Assembly (NCBI GenBank): GCA_016930515.1
Contig: JAFGGO010000078.1
Coordinates: 1 to 26,939, forward strand
Length of the DNA stretch: 26,939 nt
Direction of reading: 5' to 3'
Source: Promethearchaeota archaeon
GTDB lineage: Archaea; Asgardarchaeota; Lokiarchaeia; Sigyniarchaeales; SOKP01
The notes below the pieces were generated by a model. That model was not told the DNA's origin. It did no database searches and saw only the letters and a list, made by a program, of their open reading frames with translations. Numbering within the stretch: position 1 is the first letter of the stretch; each line of letters opens with the position of its first letter. Shown here piece after piece: positions 106-20,438 of the stretch. The position numbers and the translations under genes are program-made.

Positions 106-933
106 ATGATAGTTTTTGGATTTCTTTCTATATTTATAATCGGCTGTCTAAGCTTTGTTGGTGTATTCATGCTTTCCATGAAAGAGCGGACGCTTGATGG
201 AATTTTATTCGTTCTCGTGGCTTTTGCAACGGGTACAATTTTTGCTACAGCAATACTTGACCTCATACCAGAAGCGATCCATCACATCGAGGAGGGAGCG
301 ATAAACATTGATATTCTTGGCGTTTTTCTCGTAGTTCTTTTAGGTTATGTTATTTTTTTCGTTCTCGAAAGATTCGTTTACTGGTTTCATGGGCACGCTC
401 ACGGAAAGGATGAACAAATGGTTTGCTATAGTAATATCACGGAAGGAGGGAATCTCTCAGTTCAAAAAGGACACAACATCAAGACATTTGCCTTATTGAA
501 CCTAATGGGTGATGGCCTCCATAATTATCTTGACGGCATCGTCATTATGGTAGGATTTTTAAGCGGTGTTGAAAACGGTATCGTGATCACCCTCGCGGTC
601 TTGTTTCATGAATTGCCTCAAGAAATGGGCGATTTTGGTATTTTAGTTTACGGAGGATTTTCGAGGAAAAAAGCAATTTTTTATAACTTTACAAGCGCTA
701 TGATTGCATTACTTGGAGGCTTAACAGCCCTCTTGCTCACGGAATCCGTGGAAGCATTCAATGCTTTTATGCTAGCATTTTCGGGTGGCGGTTTCTTGTA
801 CATCGCAAGCACCGAGCTCATGCCTGAGTTGCTCAAGCACAAAAACTTGAAAAAATCGATATTGCAAGCCGTCATCTTTGTATTTGGAATTTTGATGATC
901 CTGAGTCTCATCTTGTTGCTACCGCACGAATAA
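106..933 (+). CDS. ZIP (ZupT/Zrt-Irt-like) family divalent metal transporter
   Basis: About 8 hydrophobic segments, His-rich loop (HGHAH), ZIP signatures 'GDGLHNYLDG' and 'HELPQEMGDFGIL', and 'GGFLYIASTELMPEL'. Confidence 0.93.
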   Translation: MIVFGFLSIFIIGCLSFVGVFMLSMKERTLDGILFVLVAFATGTIFATAILDLIPEAIHHIEEGAINIDILGVFLVVLLGYVIFFVLERFVYWFHGHAHGKDEQMVCYSNITEGGNLSVQKGHNIKTFALLNLMGDGLHNYLDGIVIMVGFLSGVENGIVITLAVLFHELPQEMGDFGILVYGGFSRKKAIFYNFTSAMIALLGGLTALLLTESVEAFNAFMLAFSGGGFLYIASTELMPELLKHKNLKKSILQAVIFVFGILMILSLILLLPHE

Positions 934-1014
934 TCAATTTGTCCTGCAATCTTTTTAAAACCTGTGTTAATTATATATGTATATACAAGTCGTTTTTGGA
1001 TCATGTACTATTTA

Positions 1015-1024
1015 AAAAGGTGAT
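1015..1024 (+). promoter_or_regulatory. Shine-Dalgarno site (AAGGTGAT) for the hidden selenoprotein gene starting at TTG 1027
   Basis: GGTGA at 1019-1023, just upstream of an in-frame TTG. An AT-rich TATA-like element (TTATATAT) lies at about 971-978. Confidence 0.6.
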
Positions 1025-1026
1025 TC

Positions 1027-1407
1027 TTGTTTAAAATATCATTTACCCAAAGCGCATTGGATTACATTTGCGAACAGCGTTCTCTCTCTCAAGAAGAATT
1101 ATCAGAATCTAATCTCGTCGTGGCGATCTTTGCCTATGATTCCTCTACGTGAACGACTTTTTTCTGCGGAAATGTTCTTGAACTCGTAGAAAAATACAAA
1201 GTATTGGAAGATTATCCCGAATTCATTCAGTGGTTCGACTCTGAAAGAAAAATGGATTTCGAAGTTTTTGTAGAAAAAGAAGTTCTTTACGAATATAAAA
1301 AGTCGGGAACAAACCTCTTATTAATTGACGCCGTCGTTAGCGAATCAAACGGAAAAAAATACGGAATGCTGTTCTTTAAAAATTCAAATCAGACAACCTA
1401 TGGCTAA
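1027..1407 (+). CDS. Putative selenoprotein A (126 aa, Sec42, U-x4-C motif), HesB/IscA-like N-terminus
   Basis: The frame runs from TTG 1027 through one in-frame TGA (1150-1152) into the 67-aa track ORF: MFKISFTQSALDYICEQRSLSQEELSESNLVVAIFAYDSST-U-TTFFCGNVLELVEKYKVLEDYPEFIQWFDSERKMDFEVFVEKEVLYEYKKSGTNLLLIDAVVSESNGKKYGMLFFKNSNQTTYG. It is homologous on both sides of the TGA to the gene at 3733-4086, and a SECIS follows the stop codon. Confidence 0.85.
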
Positions 1408-1445
1408 AATGAACTGGCCTTATAAACGCTAGAAGGTTAGCGATT
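1408..1445 (+). promoter_or_regulatory. Eukaryote-like (Asgard-type) SECIS element of selenoprotein A
   Basis: AAUGAA-CUGGCCUU-AUAAACGCUAG-AAGGUUAG-CGAUU. It has a UGAA/CGAU non-Watson-Crick quartet with tandem G.A/A.G, an 8-bp helix and an apical AA motif, and begins 1-2 nt after the TAA stop. Confidence 0.85.
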
Positions 1446-1546
1446 CGGGTGCTCCCCTTCCATGGGTTATTTCCTTGACCTAAAAAAAAATACATCATAA
1501 AAAAACGAAAAAAGTAATAATAATTTTCCCATATTCGAAGATTAAT

Positions 1547-3499
1547 TCATGTGGATAAGTTTCTCGTGTAATTTAATTTCCCGCCCGCTATAATAATTTC
1601 TTTTTCCCGCTCAGATAAGTCGTGAACCATCTCAATCTCAAGAGAACGAGTTTTGTTAGATACCACGATGGATTTTTTTTTGTCTTCTAAGGAATTTTTA
1701 ACATTTAAAATCTCAAGTTTGTCGTCCTGTTCTAGCTTATCGAAATCGCTCGGATTGACGAAAATCAAGGGCAGGATGCCGAAATTTATCAAGTTGTCCC
1801 GATGGATTCTGGCAAAAGATTTCGCTAATATCACTTTAACGCCTAAATACATCGGTGCCAAGGCTGCGTGTTCTCTGCTGGATCCTTGGCCGTAATTTTC
1901 TCCCCCTACGATTGTCCCTGTTGCGCCTGAGTTTTTTACTTCAAGAGCTCTCGAAGAAAAGGTGGGATCCACCTGTTCAAACGCGAATTCACTAATCTTG
2001 GGCAAGTTTGACCTGAACGGCAAAATTTTAGCTCCTGCTGGTATGATGTGGTCTGTAGTAATATTGTCTTCGACTTTTATGAGCACCTTGATTTTAGCAA
2101 GATCGCTTGGCAAAGAAGCTACATCGGGCAATAGGGCAATGTTTGGACCTCTTACAATCTCGATTGCGCTTCCATCGCTTGGAGGATCGACTATCAACGA
2201 ATCGTCGATGTTAATGATATCTGGAAGCTTAACCGAAGGATAATTTCCAAGTTTTCGGGGATCCGTCAACTTGCCAAAGATTGCCGCTGCGACAGCCGTT
2301 TCGGGGCTTGATAGATATATATTCGCTGATTTTGTTCCGCTCCTACCAAAAAAATTGCGATTAAATGTACGCACCGAAGTTCCATTAGTTTTAGGAGCAA
2401 ATCCCATTCCAAGGCAGGGACCACAAGCACATTCTAAAATTCGCGCTCCTGCGGAAATGATGCTCGTTAAAGCACCATGTTTTATAAGTTCGAGCAATAC
2501 CTGTCTTGAACCTGGGGATATCCCTAAAGTCGTGTTATCGTGGACCTTTCTGCCTTTAAGAAGCTCTGCAACTAGGAGCATGTCTTTCAAGGAACTGTTG
2601 GTACACGAACCGATTGCAACTTGATTTACCACGACATTTTCTACTTCGGACACGGGAGAAACATTACCCGGAGAGTGAGGCCTTGCCACGAGTGGAACTA
2701 CCTCTGAAAGTTCGATCTCGATAACCTTGTTAAAATCGGGTTCAGGACCCATCTTGAGCTCGATCCATTGGTCTTCTCTACCTTCCAACTTCAGAAACTC
2801 TCGCGTGACATCGTCTGAGGGAAAAATAGAGGTCGTGGCGCCCGTTTCTGCACCCATATTAGCTATCGTTGCTCTTTCTGGAACGCTTAAAGATTTAACA
2901 CCGTCTCCAAAATATTCAAGAATGTATCCTAATCCACCCTTCACGTCGATCCTGCGAAGGATTTCTAATATCACGTCTTTTGCGGAGACAAAATCTCCAA
3001 GAGTTCCATTGAGCTTTATCCCCATTATTTTTGGAACTTTCATGAAGAACGGCCCTCCACCCATTGCCACCGCAACATCTAATCCCCCAGCGCCAATAGC
3101 AATAGCTCCCATTCCACCAGCCGTGGGCGTGTGAGAATCGGACCCAATCAAGGTTTTTCCTGGACGGGCGAATCGTTCCAGAAATACTTGGTGGCAAATG
3201 CCGTTTCCAGGTCTCGAAAACTTGATTCCGTACTTCGCAGCCACGGAAGCAAGATAGGCGTGATCGTCGGCGTTCTTAAAATCCGCTTGAAGAGTGTTGT
3301 GATCGACGAAGGAAACCGATAATTCGGTCTTTACTTTACTCAATTTCATTGCCTCGAACTGAAGATAGGCCATTGTACCCGTGGCGTCTTGAGTAAGGGT
3401 GTGGTCAATCTTTATTCCTACTTCCTCGCCTAGCTCGAATTGTCCTTCAACCAAGTGCTCTTTTAAAATCTTTCGTGCAATTGACATGCTAAGTTGCAT
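1547..3499 (-). CDS. acn: Aconitate hydratase (single-chain, about 650 aa, archaeal/Aquifex-type aconitase)
   Basis: 'TQDATGTMAYLQF', 'DHN', 'GNGICHQ', 'GSDSHT', Fe-S ligands in 'GSCTN' and 'CACGPCLG', swivel domain 'TTDHI' and 'NYGQGSSREHAA'. Start is probably ATG 3499 or 3487; stop is TGA. Confidence 0.93.
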   Translation of the reverse strand: MQLSMSIARKILKEHLVEGQFELGEEVGIKIDHTLTQDATGTMAYLQFEAMKLSKVKTELSVSFVDHNTLQADFKNADDHAYLASVAAKYGIKFSRPGNGICHQVFLERFARPGKTLIGSDSHTPTAGGMGAIAIGAGGLDVAVAMGGGPFFMKVPKIMGIKLNGTLGDFVSAKDVILEILRRIDVKGGLGYILEYFGDGVKSLSVPERATIANMGAETGATTSIFPSDDVTREFLKLEGREDQWIELKMGPEPDFNKVIEIELSEVVPLVARPHSPGNVSPVSEVENVVVNQVAIGSCTNSSLKDMLLVAELLKGRKVHDNTTLGISPGSRQVLLELIKHGALTSIISAGARILECACGPCLGMGFAPKTNGTSVRTFNRNFFGRSGTKSANIYLSSPETAVAAAIFGKLTDPRKLGNYPSVKLPDIINIDDSLIVDPPSDGSAIEIVRGPNIALLPDVASLPSDLAKIKVLIKVEDNITTDHIIPAGAKILPFRSNLPKISEFAFEQVDPTFSSRALEVKNSGATGTIVGGENYGQGSSREHAALAPMYLGVKVILAKSFARIHRDNLINFGILPLIFVNPSDFDKLEQDDKLEILNVKNSLEDKKKSIVVSNKTRSLEIEMVHDLSEREKEIIIAGGKLNYTRNLST

Positions 3500-3677
3500 C
3501 AAATATTTTATCGTAAGTAATTAAACTAAATGCTCTATCGTTAAAATTTTTTCCTAGCGTTCAGTTAATATTGAAAAAAAGGAAAATTTGCATTATATTG
3601 TAAGAGTTTCGCTCTAACATGACAAAAACGAGAATTTACTAAAGAAGAAAAAAAAATTGAAAACCGTGGCGTTCGGA

Positions 3678-3715
3678 AATCACCATCCTTCCATCATTTA
3701 CAAGGGCGGGTCATT
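3678..3715 (-). promoter_or_regulatory. Eukaryote-like (Asgard-type) SECIS element of selenoprotein B
   Basis: Minus strand AAUGAC-CCGCCCUU-GUAAAUGAUGG-AAGGAUGG-UGAUU. Geometry is identical to 1408-1445 (quartet, 8-nt arms, 11-nt top with AAA); the AUGA begins 18 nt after the stop codon. Confidence 0.85.
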
Positions 3716-3732
3716 TTTTTTGTTGTATTGAT

Positions 3733-4086
3733 TTATGCTCCGATATTTACCACTAACGACGTTTGTGACTTGCCCCATCTCTTCCAAGTTTTTGCGTCAA
3801 TAACGACATCTGTTTCGTGTCCTCCGAATCGCCTTACGATGACGGTATCTACGAACACATCAACTCCCGTCTGTTGCAACTCTTTTCCGTCCTCCCACCG
3901 ATTAAATCGCTCGTGATTGACAACCTCGTCCCTGCGCACTAATTGGGCAATATCGTTACAGTAAATTCGGGATCAAGAGCGAGTCTCGTGCTGGTAGATG
4001 GCCAGAACCAAATCGTTTGTACCGTCTACTGCTTTTTTCTGCTCTTGAATGTAGTTCAAAGCTTCTTGAGTGAGCTTGATTTTCAT
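3733..4086 (-). CDS. Putative selenoprotein B (117 aa, Sec38, U-x4-C motif), paralog of 1027-1407
   Basis: ATG at 4086, one in-frame TGA at 3975-3973, continuing into the 68-aa track ORF: MKIKLTQEALNYIQEQKKAVDGTNDLVLAIYQHETRS-U-SRIYCNDIAQLVRRDEVVNHERFNRWEDGKELQQTGVDVFVDTVIVRRFGGHETDVVIDAKTWKRWGKSQTSLVVNIGA. GGTGA RBS upstream and SECIS downstream. Confidence 0.87.
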
Positions 4087-4091
4087 CCCGT

Positions 4092-4098
4092 ATCACCG
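4092..4098 (-). promoter_or_regulatory. Shine-Dalgarno site (CGGTGAT) for selenoprotein B
   Basis: GGTGA on the minus strand at 4097-4093, 6 nt before ATG 4086. Confidence 0.65.
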
Positions 4099-4276
4099 TT
4101 TTTTTTTGTTCCAAATTTGTTATTAATATTTCTTAACATGTATGAAAAGAAATAAGAATTAGTATTATATTATAAAAAATTTGATCGAATTATTGTTATA
4201 ATTTATTTTTTCGAATGAGAAGAGATCACATATTTCTCCTATTTTTTTACATGGATTTTTTCACAATCAAATCTTC

Positions 4277-4663
4277 TCAAGCTATCTTTTTTAGCGTGCA
4301 AGTAAACCTGGTATAATACAAGCCCTTGGGTAATTGCTGATTTCCCTGGAGGTACAAGAGCCAAGGGTGGACCTCGATCTCCAAGAATCTCTGAAATCTA
4401 GCAGGTATCTCCATATATTCGCGCAATTCGGTCTCCCATACATAATATATCTCAGAAATGCACATCAAGGCGATCTCTCTTGTCGTGATCTCTCCTTCGA
4501 GGTCGAAGAGGCAGTTCACAAACGATCGGAGTATGGTCTCTATGTATTTCTCGATTTTTTTCTTATTATTCGACAAAAAGATTTTAAACGCTTTTTCAAG
4601 CCGGCGCTTGGAAACATACGACTTCAAATACGAAATTAACATTTCTCGCTCGTTATTTATCAT
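4277..4663 (-). CDS. Hypothetical protein (128 aa), tandem paralog of 4868-5251
   Basis: Clean ORF in AT-rich flanks. Shares FVNCL and HxWxLYLQxNxxLPxG motifs with the neighbouring ORF. Confidence 0.75.
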   Translation of the reverse strand: MINNEREMLISYLKSYVSKRRLEKAFKIFLSNNKKKIEKYIETILRSFVNCLFDLEGEITTREIALMCISEIYYVWETELREYMEIPARFQRFLEIEVHPWLLYLQGNQQLPKGLYYTRFTCTLKKIA

Positions 4664-4867: not shown

Positions 4868-5251
4868 TTATAATTTCTTATACTTACCTGCATACCTGTT
4901 ATATGTTGTCCCTGAAGGAAGCTTGTCGTTTTTTTGAAGGTACAAGAACCAGAGGTGAAATAAGGTTTCCAAGAGCGGTTTTAACTTGCTGGGTTTTTTT
5001 GCGTAACTCGATATTTCTGCCTCTCCTTGATCGTAATAGTCTGCCACTGTTGTAATCACCAAATCCTTGATATACACCTCGTCCGATAAGTTATTTAGAC
5101 AATTCACGAAAGTTTTCACCACGATATTCGTATGATTGACAAAGGTAAACCCGAAAGCGTTTTTTATGGACCTTCTCAAGGATCGCCTCGTTTTCAAATA
5201 CTCAAGTAATTCTTTTTCTAGCTTTTCCGTGTCTTTTTCGTTCAATTTCAA
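4868..5251 (-). CDS. Hypothetical protein (127 aa), tandem paralog of 4277-4663
   Basis: TTG start preceded by AAGG. Same length and motifs as the neighbour (FVNCL, HLWFLYLQKNDKLPSG). Confidence 0.75.
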   Translation of the reverse strand: MKLNEKDTEKLEKELLEYLKTRRSLRRSIKNAFGFTFVNHTNIVVKTFVNCLNNLSDEVYIKDLVITTVADYYDQGEAEISSYAKKPSKLKPLLETLFHLWFLYLQKNDKLPSGTTYNRYAGKYKKL

Positions 5252-18896: not shown

Positions 18897-20438
18897 ATGT
18901 TAGCGATACCTAAACCTGGAACGCCGATTATCATTGATATGGGAAGTGCTTATGTTAAAATTGGATTTGCGGGCGAACCTGGACCGAGATTCATTTTTCC
19001 TTGCATTACAGGAACTGAAAAATATAAAGCCGTTATGGCAGATGTGTCAACGAGGAGTATATATGTAGGGGACGACGCAATGAAGATGCGGGGCGTTTTA
19101 AAAGTCAAGAGACCTATCGAAAGAACAACCATCATGAGTTGGGAAGACTTTTACGAGATCCTTAACCATATTTTTTATACATTACTCCGGATTGAAAATC
19201 TTTCAGCGTATCCCGTGTTTTATGTAGAACCATCTTTTATTCAAAGGGAAACTAAGGAATACATCGCTCGAGTGTTGTTTGAAACCCATAGAGTCCAAAG
19301 CTTGATAATGGTTCCCTCTCCAATTCTTTCGATATTTGCCGTTGGTCTTACCACGGGTTTAGTTGTCGAAAGTGGACACGGTGTTACGACCATCGTTCCA
19401 ATCGTGAACGGGAAAGTTTATCACCAAGCAATTCAAAAACTTAACCTCGCTGGAATGGATGTCATAGGAAATCTCAGGACATTGCTCATGAGAGAAGGAA
19501 TTAACATTCAATCTTCTGCTGTTGAAGAAATAATGAGAGAGATAGTAGAAAAAAATTGTTATTTCATTTTAAATCCTAACAATCCGCCTCAAGCAATGGA
19601 GAACTTCAATTACCCGATGCCTGACGGTACTTACCTCAATATTCCCCAACACATACTTTATCTAGCACCCGAAGTGCTTTTCCAACCAGCGCTCATTAAC
19701 GCAAACACGCAAAGCATTCCACAGGCAACGATATCGTCATTATATAGCATAAATAGCGCCTATTGGAGCGAATTATTATCTCATGTTGTCCTTTCGGGAG
19801 GAAATCTTTCTTATCCAGGTTTCGAAGAGCGTTTTAAGTCGGAACTTACTGCGCTTTTGCCCCAATTAGGGCCCATCCCTAAACCCGTTGCCTCTTCAAA
19901 ATCGAAAGAAGCTCCTTCTCTACAACCAATGCAACTTCAATCTGTAAGAAGCGAAACGAAAGATCAAGATACTTGCTCAAAATGCGGTACTCTTGTTAAT
20001 TTAACTGACGGAAAGGAATTTTGCCCTTCATGCGGAGCACCGATGAAAGTACCAGAAATATCGTTAGACTTGAATCTCAATCAAAAAAAACCGAAGAAAA
20101 CAGACGAAGGAAAATGTCCCCATTGCAAAAAGGAAATTAAAGATAAAACGTCTCTTTTTTGTCCTTATTGCGGTAAAAAATTATTAATGCCTCAAATGCC
20201 CGAAATAGCGGGTCAGATTCCTGAACAAGAACACGCTCCAGAATTTTCTGGATTTTTTGAGTCGTCTGATACAGAGAGCATGCTAAAATTTTTCATTCCT
20301 GACAATCTTCAATACGCAACATTCTATGGTGCTTCTATCTTGGGTAGCTTACCCTCTTTCTTGAGTTTGTTTATAACCCCCGAAAAATTTCAAACTAACC
20401 CTGAACTGTTATATACGGACATTAGTTCAATTTTTTAA
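18897..20438 (+). CDS. Actin-family (actin-related) protein with internal double zinc-ribbon insertion
   Basis: Phosphate-1 'IIIDMGSAYVKIGFAGE', 'YVGDDA', phosphate-2 'TTGLVVESGHGVT', adenosine motif 'VVLSGG...PGFEERF', C-terminal 'YGASILGSL'. Insertion carries CSKC/CPSC and CPHC/CPYC. Confidence 0.9.
   Translation: MLAIPKPGTPIIIDMGSAYVKIGFAGEPGPRFIFPCITGTEKYKAVMADVSTRSIYVGDDAMKMRGVLKVKRPIERTTIMSWEDFYEILNHIFYTLLRIENLSAYPVFYVEPSFIQRETKEYIARVLFETHRVQSLIMVPSPILSIFAVGLTTGLVVESGHGVTTIVPIVNGKVYHQAIQKLNLAGMDVIGNLRTLLMREGINIQSSAVEEIMREIVEKNCYFILNPNNPPQAMENFNYPMPDGTYLNIPQHILYLAPEVLFQPALINANTQSIPQATISSLYSINSAYWSELLSHVVLSGGNLSYPGFEERFKSELTALLPQLGPIPKPVASSKSKEAPSLQPMQLQSVRSETKDQDTCSKCGTLVNLTDGKEFCPSCGAPMKVPEISLDLNLNQKKPKKTDEGKCPHCKKEIKDKTSLFCPYCGKKLLMPQMPEIAGQIPEQEHAPEFSGFFESSDTESMLKFFIPDNLQYATFYGASILGSLPSFLSLFITPEKFQTNPELLYTDISSIF

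Follow-up and report, generated by a model that had tools for sequence, protein, structure and literature searches.

Organization of the locus

The analyzed window is a 26,939-nucleotide stretch (positions 1 to 26,939 of the forward strand of contig JAFGGO010000078.1, GenBank assembly GCA_016930515.1) from a Promethearchaeota archaeon of the class Lokiarchaeia. Notably, it carries two small paralogous genes that gene finders cut in half at an apparent stop codon. Paralog A (1027 to 1407, +) encodes a 126-aa protein with a TTG start codon, preceded at a distance of 3 nt by a Shine-Dalgarno-like GGTGA (1019 to 1023, +), and paralog B (3733 to 4086, -) encodes a 117-aa protein with an ATG start codon and an upstream GGTGA. 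The same GGTGA/GGTGG-N3-start layout is found in most homologs. Both frames are open from the start codon to a TAA, with exactly one in-frame TGA, which corresponds to residue 42 of paralog A (1150 to 1152, +) and residue 38 of paralog B (3973 to 3975, -). A Cys codon follows five residues later in both genes (Cys47 at 1165 to 1167, +, and Cys43 at 3958 to 3960, -), giving the motifs U-T-x-x-F-C-G-N in paralog A and R-S-U-S-x-x-Y-C in paralog B. Neither gene is present in the table 11 ORF list at ≥80 aa. The two proteins align over 114 residues at 26% identity (E value of 4e-15 for the pair), with U aligned on U and the +5 Cys on the +5 Cys. A single-chain aconitate hydratase gene (1547 to 3502, -), scoring above the cutoff of TIGR01342/NF005558, lies between the paralogs; it is co-oriented with and downstream of paralog B and convergent on paralog A. 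A ZIP metal transporter gene (106 to 933, +) lies upstream of paralog A, a position that it occupies only in this genome and one congener among the loci read. A scan for sigma-70 promoters and terminators, which is not suited to archaea, gave nothing above shuffled sequences, and two RNA runs of the same study did not cover the genes, which says nothing about expression.

Conservation of the in-frame TGA

The in-frame TGA is conserved far beyond this locus. Of the 161 genomes of the class, 53 have a match, almost all with one in-frame TGA, and of the 70 matches above 88 bits in related genomes, 67 have one in-frame TGA, while the other three have Cys at that column. Among 39 aligned homologs chosen by a hidden Markov model, 37 have U in one column, all 37 of which also have the +5 Cys, and the other two have Cys in that column. 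A metagenome pattern scan with paralog B yielded no confirmed relative. Coding constraint continues after the TGA, with dN/dS values of 0.23 before and 0.17 after it over 35 nonindependent pairs, which indicates purifying selection, and a single predicted domain spans it. A Logan contig of the probable source run covers positions 900 to 4237 with 0 differences, so the TGAs are not peculiar to this assembly, although that run is probably not independent.

Databases hold these genes as 40-aa and 80-aa halves or with Trp at the TGA column, which could be taken to mean that they are pseudogenes, split genes, or assembly errors or that TGA is read as Trp or Gly. This view is largely refuted by the presence of the TGA in the same column in dozens of genomes at 20 to 60% identity, by the selection after it, and by the covarying SECIS elements described below. 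In addition, TGA ends 471 of 2424 long ORFs in this genome and is thus a normal stop codon, and the natural substitutes at the column are Cys. The Trp residues in some database proteins are a gene caller artifact, as the one record that was checked translates only with TGA read as Trp.

SECIS elements and the selenocysteine machinery

Each gene is followed by its own eukaryote-like SECIS, located 1 nt after the stop codon of paralog A (1409 to 1444, +) and 18 nt after that of paralog B (3679 to 3714, -). The element of paralog A consists of AUGA, an 8-bp stem, a loop with AAA, and a closing GA. Across 46 copies, all 8 stem pairs covary, with 97.6% paired; none of 500 shuffles reached this value, and slid registers gave 45 to 59%. 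A strict SECIS pattern was found behind 28 of 39 A genes and 14 of 15 B genes but behind none of 5 Cys paralogs and behind 0.5% of 3022 long ORFs at a similar distance. A relaxed pattern without a pairing check also hit 2 of the 5 Cys paralogs, and only the strict scan is therefore used as a contrast. Each SECIS on its own folds no better than shuffled sequences (z values of -0.05 to -1.4), so the support comes from motif and covariation and not from folding energy. An Rfam search over positions 900 to 4300 gave no match to a SECIS family. The same architecture follows selD and two vhuD genes in this genome. The elements share the AUGA...GA core, the 8-bp upper stem, the A-rich loop, and the position just 3' of the stop codon with the Lokiarchaeota SECIS and the Asgard eSECIS-like type I (Mariotti 2016, PMC4989117; Huang 2024, PMC11227280), but they are followed by a small GC-rich hairpin rather than an obvious lower stem, and they are attached to a protein family outside the five (2016) or seven (2024) listed.

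The genome also carries the machinery for Sec. SecS and a SelD with its own TGA score above the cutoffs, whereas the PSTK-like (128 bits) and EFSec-like (236 bits) proteins score below the cutoffs of non-Asgard models. The tRNA-Sec is split over two contig ends and has an insertion, and because of this it was missed by RF01852 and ARAGORN; a relaxed ARAGORN search gave only noise. SelD is present in 47 of 50 TGA-carrying genomes tested, while the two well-assembled genomes with a Cys-only homolog lack it. Together, the open frames, the conserved TGA column with its Cys counterparts, the SECIS covariation, and the machinery indicate, with a probability of about 96%, that the single UGA of each gene is read as selenocysteine, although the incorporation of selenium is inferred and has no experimental proof.

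Predicted fold and relationship to known families

The predicted structure (pLDDT of 84) has IscA, SufA, and DsrR as its top structural matches, with a Foldseek E value of 1.8e-4 and a Z score of 8.1 over 97 residues for the IscA/HesB fold. Searches of PDB sequences with two profiles gave nothing significant. The Sec lies at the tip of the hairpin that carries Cys35 in IscA, and the Sec column aligns on Cys35 of Escherichia coli IscA, although this alignment is weak by sequence (E value of 0.0018 for the wider family and 0.13 for A/B). In contrast to the A-type Fe-S carriers IscA, SufA, and ErpA (PF01521), the two proteins lack the C-terminal CGCG, have Sec in place of Cys35 and an extra Cys at +5, and have no isc/suf context. 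The HesB-like selenoprotein (TIGR01911) of Methanococcales and anaerobic bacteria is likewise a small IscA/HesB-fold protein with one Sec at the hairpin tip and no settled function, but its motif is UxGP (PMC13188914) rather than U-x4-C, and it is not reported from Asgard archaea. Only 3 of 39 members matched its model, with a best E value of 0.0012, the 66-bit cutoff was not reached, and there was no match in this genome; the SECIS of A/B is also eukaryote-like. The CC/Se motif family (NF041239, PF28096) is the best-scoring family for the wider Asgard group, whose distant members score 13 to 37.5 bits against a cutoff of 40, the highest being a UCG member, and PF28096 is precomputed on two Cys paralogs of A/B. 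However, the best E value of A/B is 0.0056, in 7 of 39 members, the listed motif is CxxU, the family is not marked as archaeal in the table of a 2026 review, and A/B are 15 to 30 residues longer. DsrR of Allochromatium vinosum (Z score of 6.2) has an IscA-like fold without the full Cys set, but it is bacterial and dsr linked and is apparently not known as a selenoprotein.

The sequence-only reading had proposed Sec recoding, a SECIS behind each gene, and the HesB/IscA fold, and these points held up, as did an Asgard (Lokiarchaeia) host and the absence of the family from Asgard selenoproteome surveys. One refinement is that the family is not isolated. It appears to be a derived U-x4-C clade within a wider Asgard HesB-fold selenoprotein group with UCG, UUG, USG, UGG, and URG motifs, which grades toward the known CC/Se motif and HesB-like families, although the tree has few columns, and two database Trp residues were set to Cys for it. 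The wider family occurs in 94 of 400 Asgard genomes searched, and distant members of the UCG subtype sit in genomes whose lengths match two cultured Lokiarchaeia. Three published surveys do not list it, the U-x4-C motif does not appear in the 119-family table of the 2026 review, and literature searches, which could not reach most subscription papers, found no mention of this family in Asgard archaea. The Asgard selenoproteome is used to argue how the eukaryotic Sec system arose, and its published list has only seven families, found by homology to known ones (PMC11227280). The family described here brings many new SECIS copies with clear covariation, indicating that the list is incomplete, and a second unlisted multi-Sec family found in the same genome points the same way. 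In addition, the genes are about 120 codons long with one UGA and a compact SECIS, which makes them convenient reporters for how Asgard archaea recode UGA without SBP2.

Possible functions and genomic neighborhood

Any function of the two proteins is inferred. Because the IscA C-terminal cysteines are gone and a new Cys is fixed five residues after Sec in the same exposed loop, the pair most likely acts as a redox switch, although this reading is tentative and has somewhat less than even odds. In this model, Sec attacks an oxidized or persulfidated substrate, the +5 Cys resolves it as a selenenyl-sulfide, and a thioredoxin rereduces it, and the likely use is keeping thiol or Fe-S enzymes working, with aconitase as a candidate client. 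Of 56 A/B proteins, 44 have no Cys other than the +5 one, and in distant members the second thiol moves, being an adjacent Cys, an adjacent Sec, or a C-terminal Cys. A thioredoxin gene lies beside distant members in four genomes of two families, but none lies beside the A/B genes themselves. DsrR is a precedent for an IscA-like protein that binds neither iron nor Fe-S (Grimm 2010, cited in PMC11406059). However, the loop with U42 and C47 is the least certain part of the folded core (pLDDT of 64), the U-C distance could not be measured, and five residues apart in an extended strand would be too far. Moreover, there are single-Cys paralogs that cannot form an internal bond.

It is possible, though less likely, that the proteins are iron or Fe-S carriers or repair factors, in which a dimer (A2, B2, or AB) supplies Sec and Cys from each chain as four ligands, replacing the lost CGCG, and delivers Fe or a cluster to aconitase and other Fe-S enzymes. 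The fold and the Sec at the Cys35 ligand position are consistent with this, no canonical A-type carrier was found in this 94%-complete genome, and one distant member lies two genes from an IscS-like class V aminotransferase. The aconitase gene is adjacent to A/B in 10 of 42 genomes across four genera, but it is absent from the flanks in 32 of 42, and its orientation varies, which rules it out as a fixed partner. There are no isc/suf genes in the A/B neighborhood, DsrR shows that the fold can lose Fe binding, and the HesB-like selenoprotein of M. maripaludis has no clear function, its disruption not having impaired nitrogen fixation (PMC11097638). A more speculative and doubtful form of this reading is that Asgard archaea lacking a canonical A-type carrier use such selenoproteins as selenolate-ligated cluster carriers, with paralogs A and B specialized or heterodimeric and aconitase as a client; the wider group would be one of the most widespread archaeal selenoprotein families, missed by every survey that could be read.

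A role in relaying sulfur or selenium as a persulfide or perselenide carrier, or a regulatory role like that of DsrR, is very unlikely. DsrR is among the top structural matches, the single Sec is exposed, and the single-Cys paralogs fit a one-thiol carrier, but no sulfurtransferase, dsr, or Sec machinery genes lie next to A/B, and the invariant +5 Cys is left unexplained. A role as a soft-metal chaperone, buffer, or sensor tied to the neighboring transporters is also unlikely. The neighboring P-type ATPase is divergent, scoring best against Ca2+-type models, below the cutoff, and poorly against heavy-metal P1B models, and no shared operator was visible by eye in the intergenic DNA. Distant members have unrelated neighbors, so the link may be inherited gene order within one family. 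Nevertheless, this type II cation P-type ATPase is the stable neighbor of the A/B genes, being within the flank in 39 of 42 genomes and 11 genera, mostly head-to-head with paralog A, and in this genus the ZIP transporter is inserted between them.

Conservation of the in-frame TGA

When the TGA is read as Sec, the window region 1027-1407(+) encodes a 126-aa protein (paralog A, with U42 and C47), and the region 3733-4086(-) encodes a 117-aa protein (paralog B, with U38 and C43). Each reading frame contains one TGA and ends in TAA. The two proteins align over 114 residues with 26% identity (E value of 4e-15 for the pair), with the U and the +5 Cys in register. A single-chain aconitase gene lies between the two paralogs, and a ZIP transporter gene precedes paralog A. 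The host is an Asgard archaeon of the Lokiarchaeia, and the database homologues are labelled Promethearchaeota. Paralog B alone found matches in 53 of 161 genomes of the class, nearly all of which have one in-frame TGA. In an alignment of 39 homologues selected by HMM, 37 have U in one column, all with Cys five residues further on, while the other two have Cys in the U column and no +5 Cys. The profile found 70 matches above 88 bits, including 67 with a TGA and three Cys paralogs, which sit between A and B in tandem clusters. Among 35 pairs sharing 70 to 97% identity, which are not independent of one another, dN/dS is 0.23 before and 0.17 after the TGA. Protein databases hold the family as halves, ending at profile position 41 or starting at position 44, or with Trp at the TGA column. 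However, the Trp record that was examined translates only with TGA=W, and TGA ends 471 of 2424 long ORFs in this genome, so the code is not reassigned. In addition, Sec-free paralogs with a Cys-rich insertion at the hairpin tip, containing several CxxC-like motifs, were found (locus L081, 1800-2330(-), in genome G156, and P0033, P0045, and P0052), and they are possibly a metal-binding variant.

SECIS elements and Sec machinery

Both genes are followed by AUGA, an 8-bp stem, an 11-nt loop with AAA, and GA, located at 1409-1444(+) for paralog A and 3714-3679(-) for paralog B. A strict scan found this arrangement behind 28 of 39 A genes, 14 of 15 B genes, 0 of 5 Cys paralogs, and 0.5% of long ORFs at a similar distance. 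Across 46 copies, all eight stem pairs show two-sided changes, and 97.6% of cells pair. None of 500 shuffles reached this value, and slid registers gave 45 to 59%; although the sequences are related and the shuffle count is therefore not a probability, the collapse of the slid controls is large. The same architecture follows selD and two vhuD genes of this genome and fits the type I eSECIS-like model (PMC11227280). A small GC-rich hairpin (consensus CGGT...CCG) follows the SECIS in most copies, at 1445-1460(+) and 3660-3677(-) in the window, and may have a terminator or SECIS-associated role.

The genome contains SecS, SelD with its own TGA, and PSTK-like and EFSec-like genes, the latter two scoring below the cutoffs of models that were built on other lineages. 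tRNA-Sec escaped the initial search because it is split over the ends of two contigs, C27 (123585-123631) and C134 (32764-32662), which overlap by 31 nt across the UCA anticodon and carry the EFSec-like and SecS genes. It has a 29-nt insertion in the T-loop that looks like a bulge-helix-bulge intron, and removing this insertion restores the sequence of relatives. Of the 50 genomes with a TGA-bearing homologue, 47 have SelD, and the three exceptions are 63 to 76% complete. The two genomes whose only homologue lacks TGA, which are 93% and 96% complete, have no SelD match. Six genomes without the family do have SelD, which indicates that the family is dispensable in Sec users.

Predicted fold and related families

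The structural model of paralog A (pLDDT of 84) matches IscA, SufA, and DsrR above all else (Foldseek E value of 1.8e-4; Z scores of 8.1, 7.4, and 6.2), with the next unrelated fold having a Z score of 3.0. A broader profile reached 94 of 400 Asgard genomes. These distant members have UCG, UUG, USG, UGG, or URG motifs, some with a C-terminal Cys, and most have a similar SECIS by inspection. Two of them, at 2067-2381(-) of locus L110 (genome G013) and 1963-2292(-) of locus L126 (genome G015), contain two adjacent TGAs (U-U-G) where others have U-C-G. The distant members are homologous to A and B (hhalign, 99%), are predicted to fold like IscA, and place Sec on Cys35 of Escherichia coli IscA, an alignment that is weak for A and B themselves. 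In a phylogenetic tree with few columns, A, B, and their Cys paralogs fall on one side of a 99/95 branch, together with a few long-branched rows. No member passes the cutoff of TIGR01911, NF041239, or an IscA model, with NF041239 being the nearest. The order of the host contains a genome of 6,035,313 bp, the published length of "Ca. Lokiarchaeum ossiferum." G016, the genome identical in length to L. ossiferum, and G021, a genome of 4,324,194 bp (MK-D1 is given as 4.32 Mb), carry the UCG subtype rather than U-x4-C, although these identifications rest on length only.

A study by Mariotti et al. in 2016 (PMC4989117) lists five selenoprotein families in Lokiarchaeota and does not mention HesB. Huang et al. 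in 2024 (PMC11227280) list seven families in more than 400 Asgard genomes, which were searched only with known families; HesB is not among them, and the authors call for the finding of new families. A 2026 review counts 11 archaeal families; its HesB-like entry has UxGP, and its table has no U-x4-C motif. Paralogs A and B are almost certainly a real pair of selenoprotein genes of the known HesB-like/CC-Se kind, distinguished by the U-x4-C motif, the Asgard host, and the eukaryote-like SECIS, and they represent neither a new fold nor a new recoding system. Notably, a second unlisted selenoprotein family occurs outside the window on contig C43 of this genome (4408-4860(+) and 4979-5419(+); loci L103 and L127). 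These paralogs of ~150 aa have A-U-G-U-U or G-C-U-U motifs (2 to 3 in-frame TGAs), are each followed by a SECIS, and have no Pfam or NCBIfam match. Homologues are present in 130 of 161 class genomes, nearly all with 2 to 3 TGAs. Here they follow hgcA-like and ferredoxin genes, and in relatives they lie near genes that, by eye only, look like arsenic resistance genes.

Possible functions and gene neighborhoods

The C-terminal CGCG of IscA is missing, and most A and B proteins have no Cys besides the +5 one. U42 and C47 lie in the loop between two strands, which is the least certain part of the core model. A function as a Sec/Cys redox switch is ranked first, tentatively and by inference only (about 45%), since the second thiol moves between subfamilies, thioredoxin genes flank distant members in four genomes, and DsrR shows that this fold can lose iron binding. 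A less likely alternative is an Fe or Fe-S carrier using Sec and Cys from two chains, for which the fold fits, no canonical A-type carrier was found in the genome, and aconitase is adjacent in 10 of 42 genomes. The known HesB-like selenoprotein also has no clear function.

Among the loci compared (L058 in G032, L013 in G151, and L002/L087 in G033), the B-aconitase block is inverted in this genome and in G033 relative to the tandem A-B-aconitase order of G032, and the bracketing of aconitase by the two paralogs (1027-4086) is a product of that inversion. The stable neighbor is a type II P-type ATPase, which is present in 39 of 42 genomes and is mostly head-to-head with A. This allows a metal-handling role, which is considered unlikely, but the association may also be inherited gene order. 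In this genome, the ATPase is at the end of contig C71, with an 11-nt overlap to the start of the window. Two membrane-like ORFs without a Pfam or NCBIfam match (C71, 48696-47643(-); L062, 741-1445; L020, 171-719) travel with the ATPase-paralog A locus in about half of the genomes. Upstream of paralog B, two tandem paralogous ORFs of ~128 aa (4277-4663(-) and 4868-5251(-)) have no Pfam match. In addition, the ORF at 18897-20438(+) encodes a 513-aa actin-like protein that, as read from the ORF translation only, has two inserted CxxC zinc-ribbon-like segments near the C terminus.
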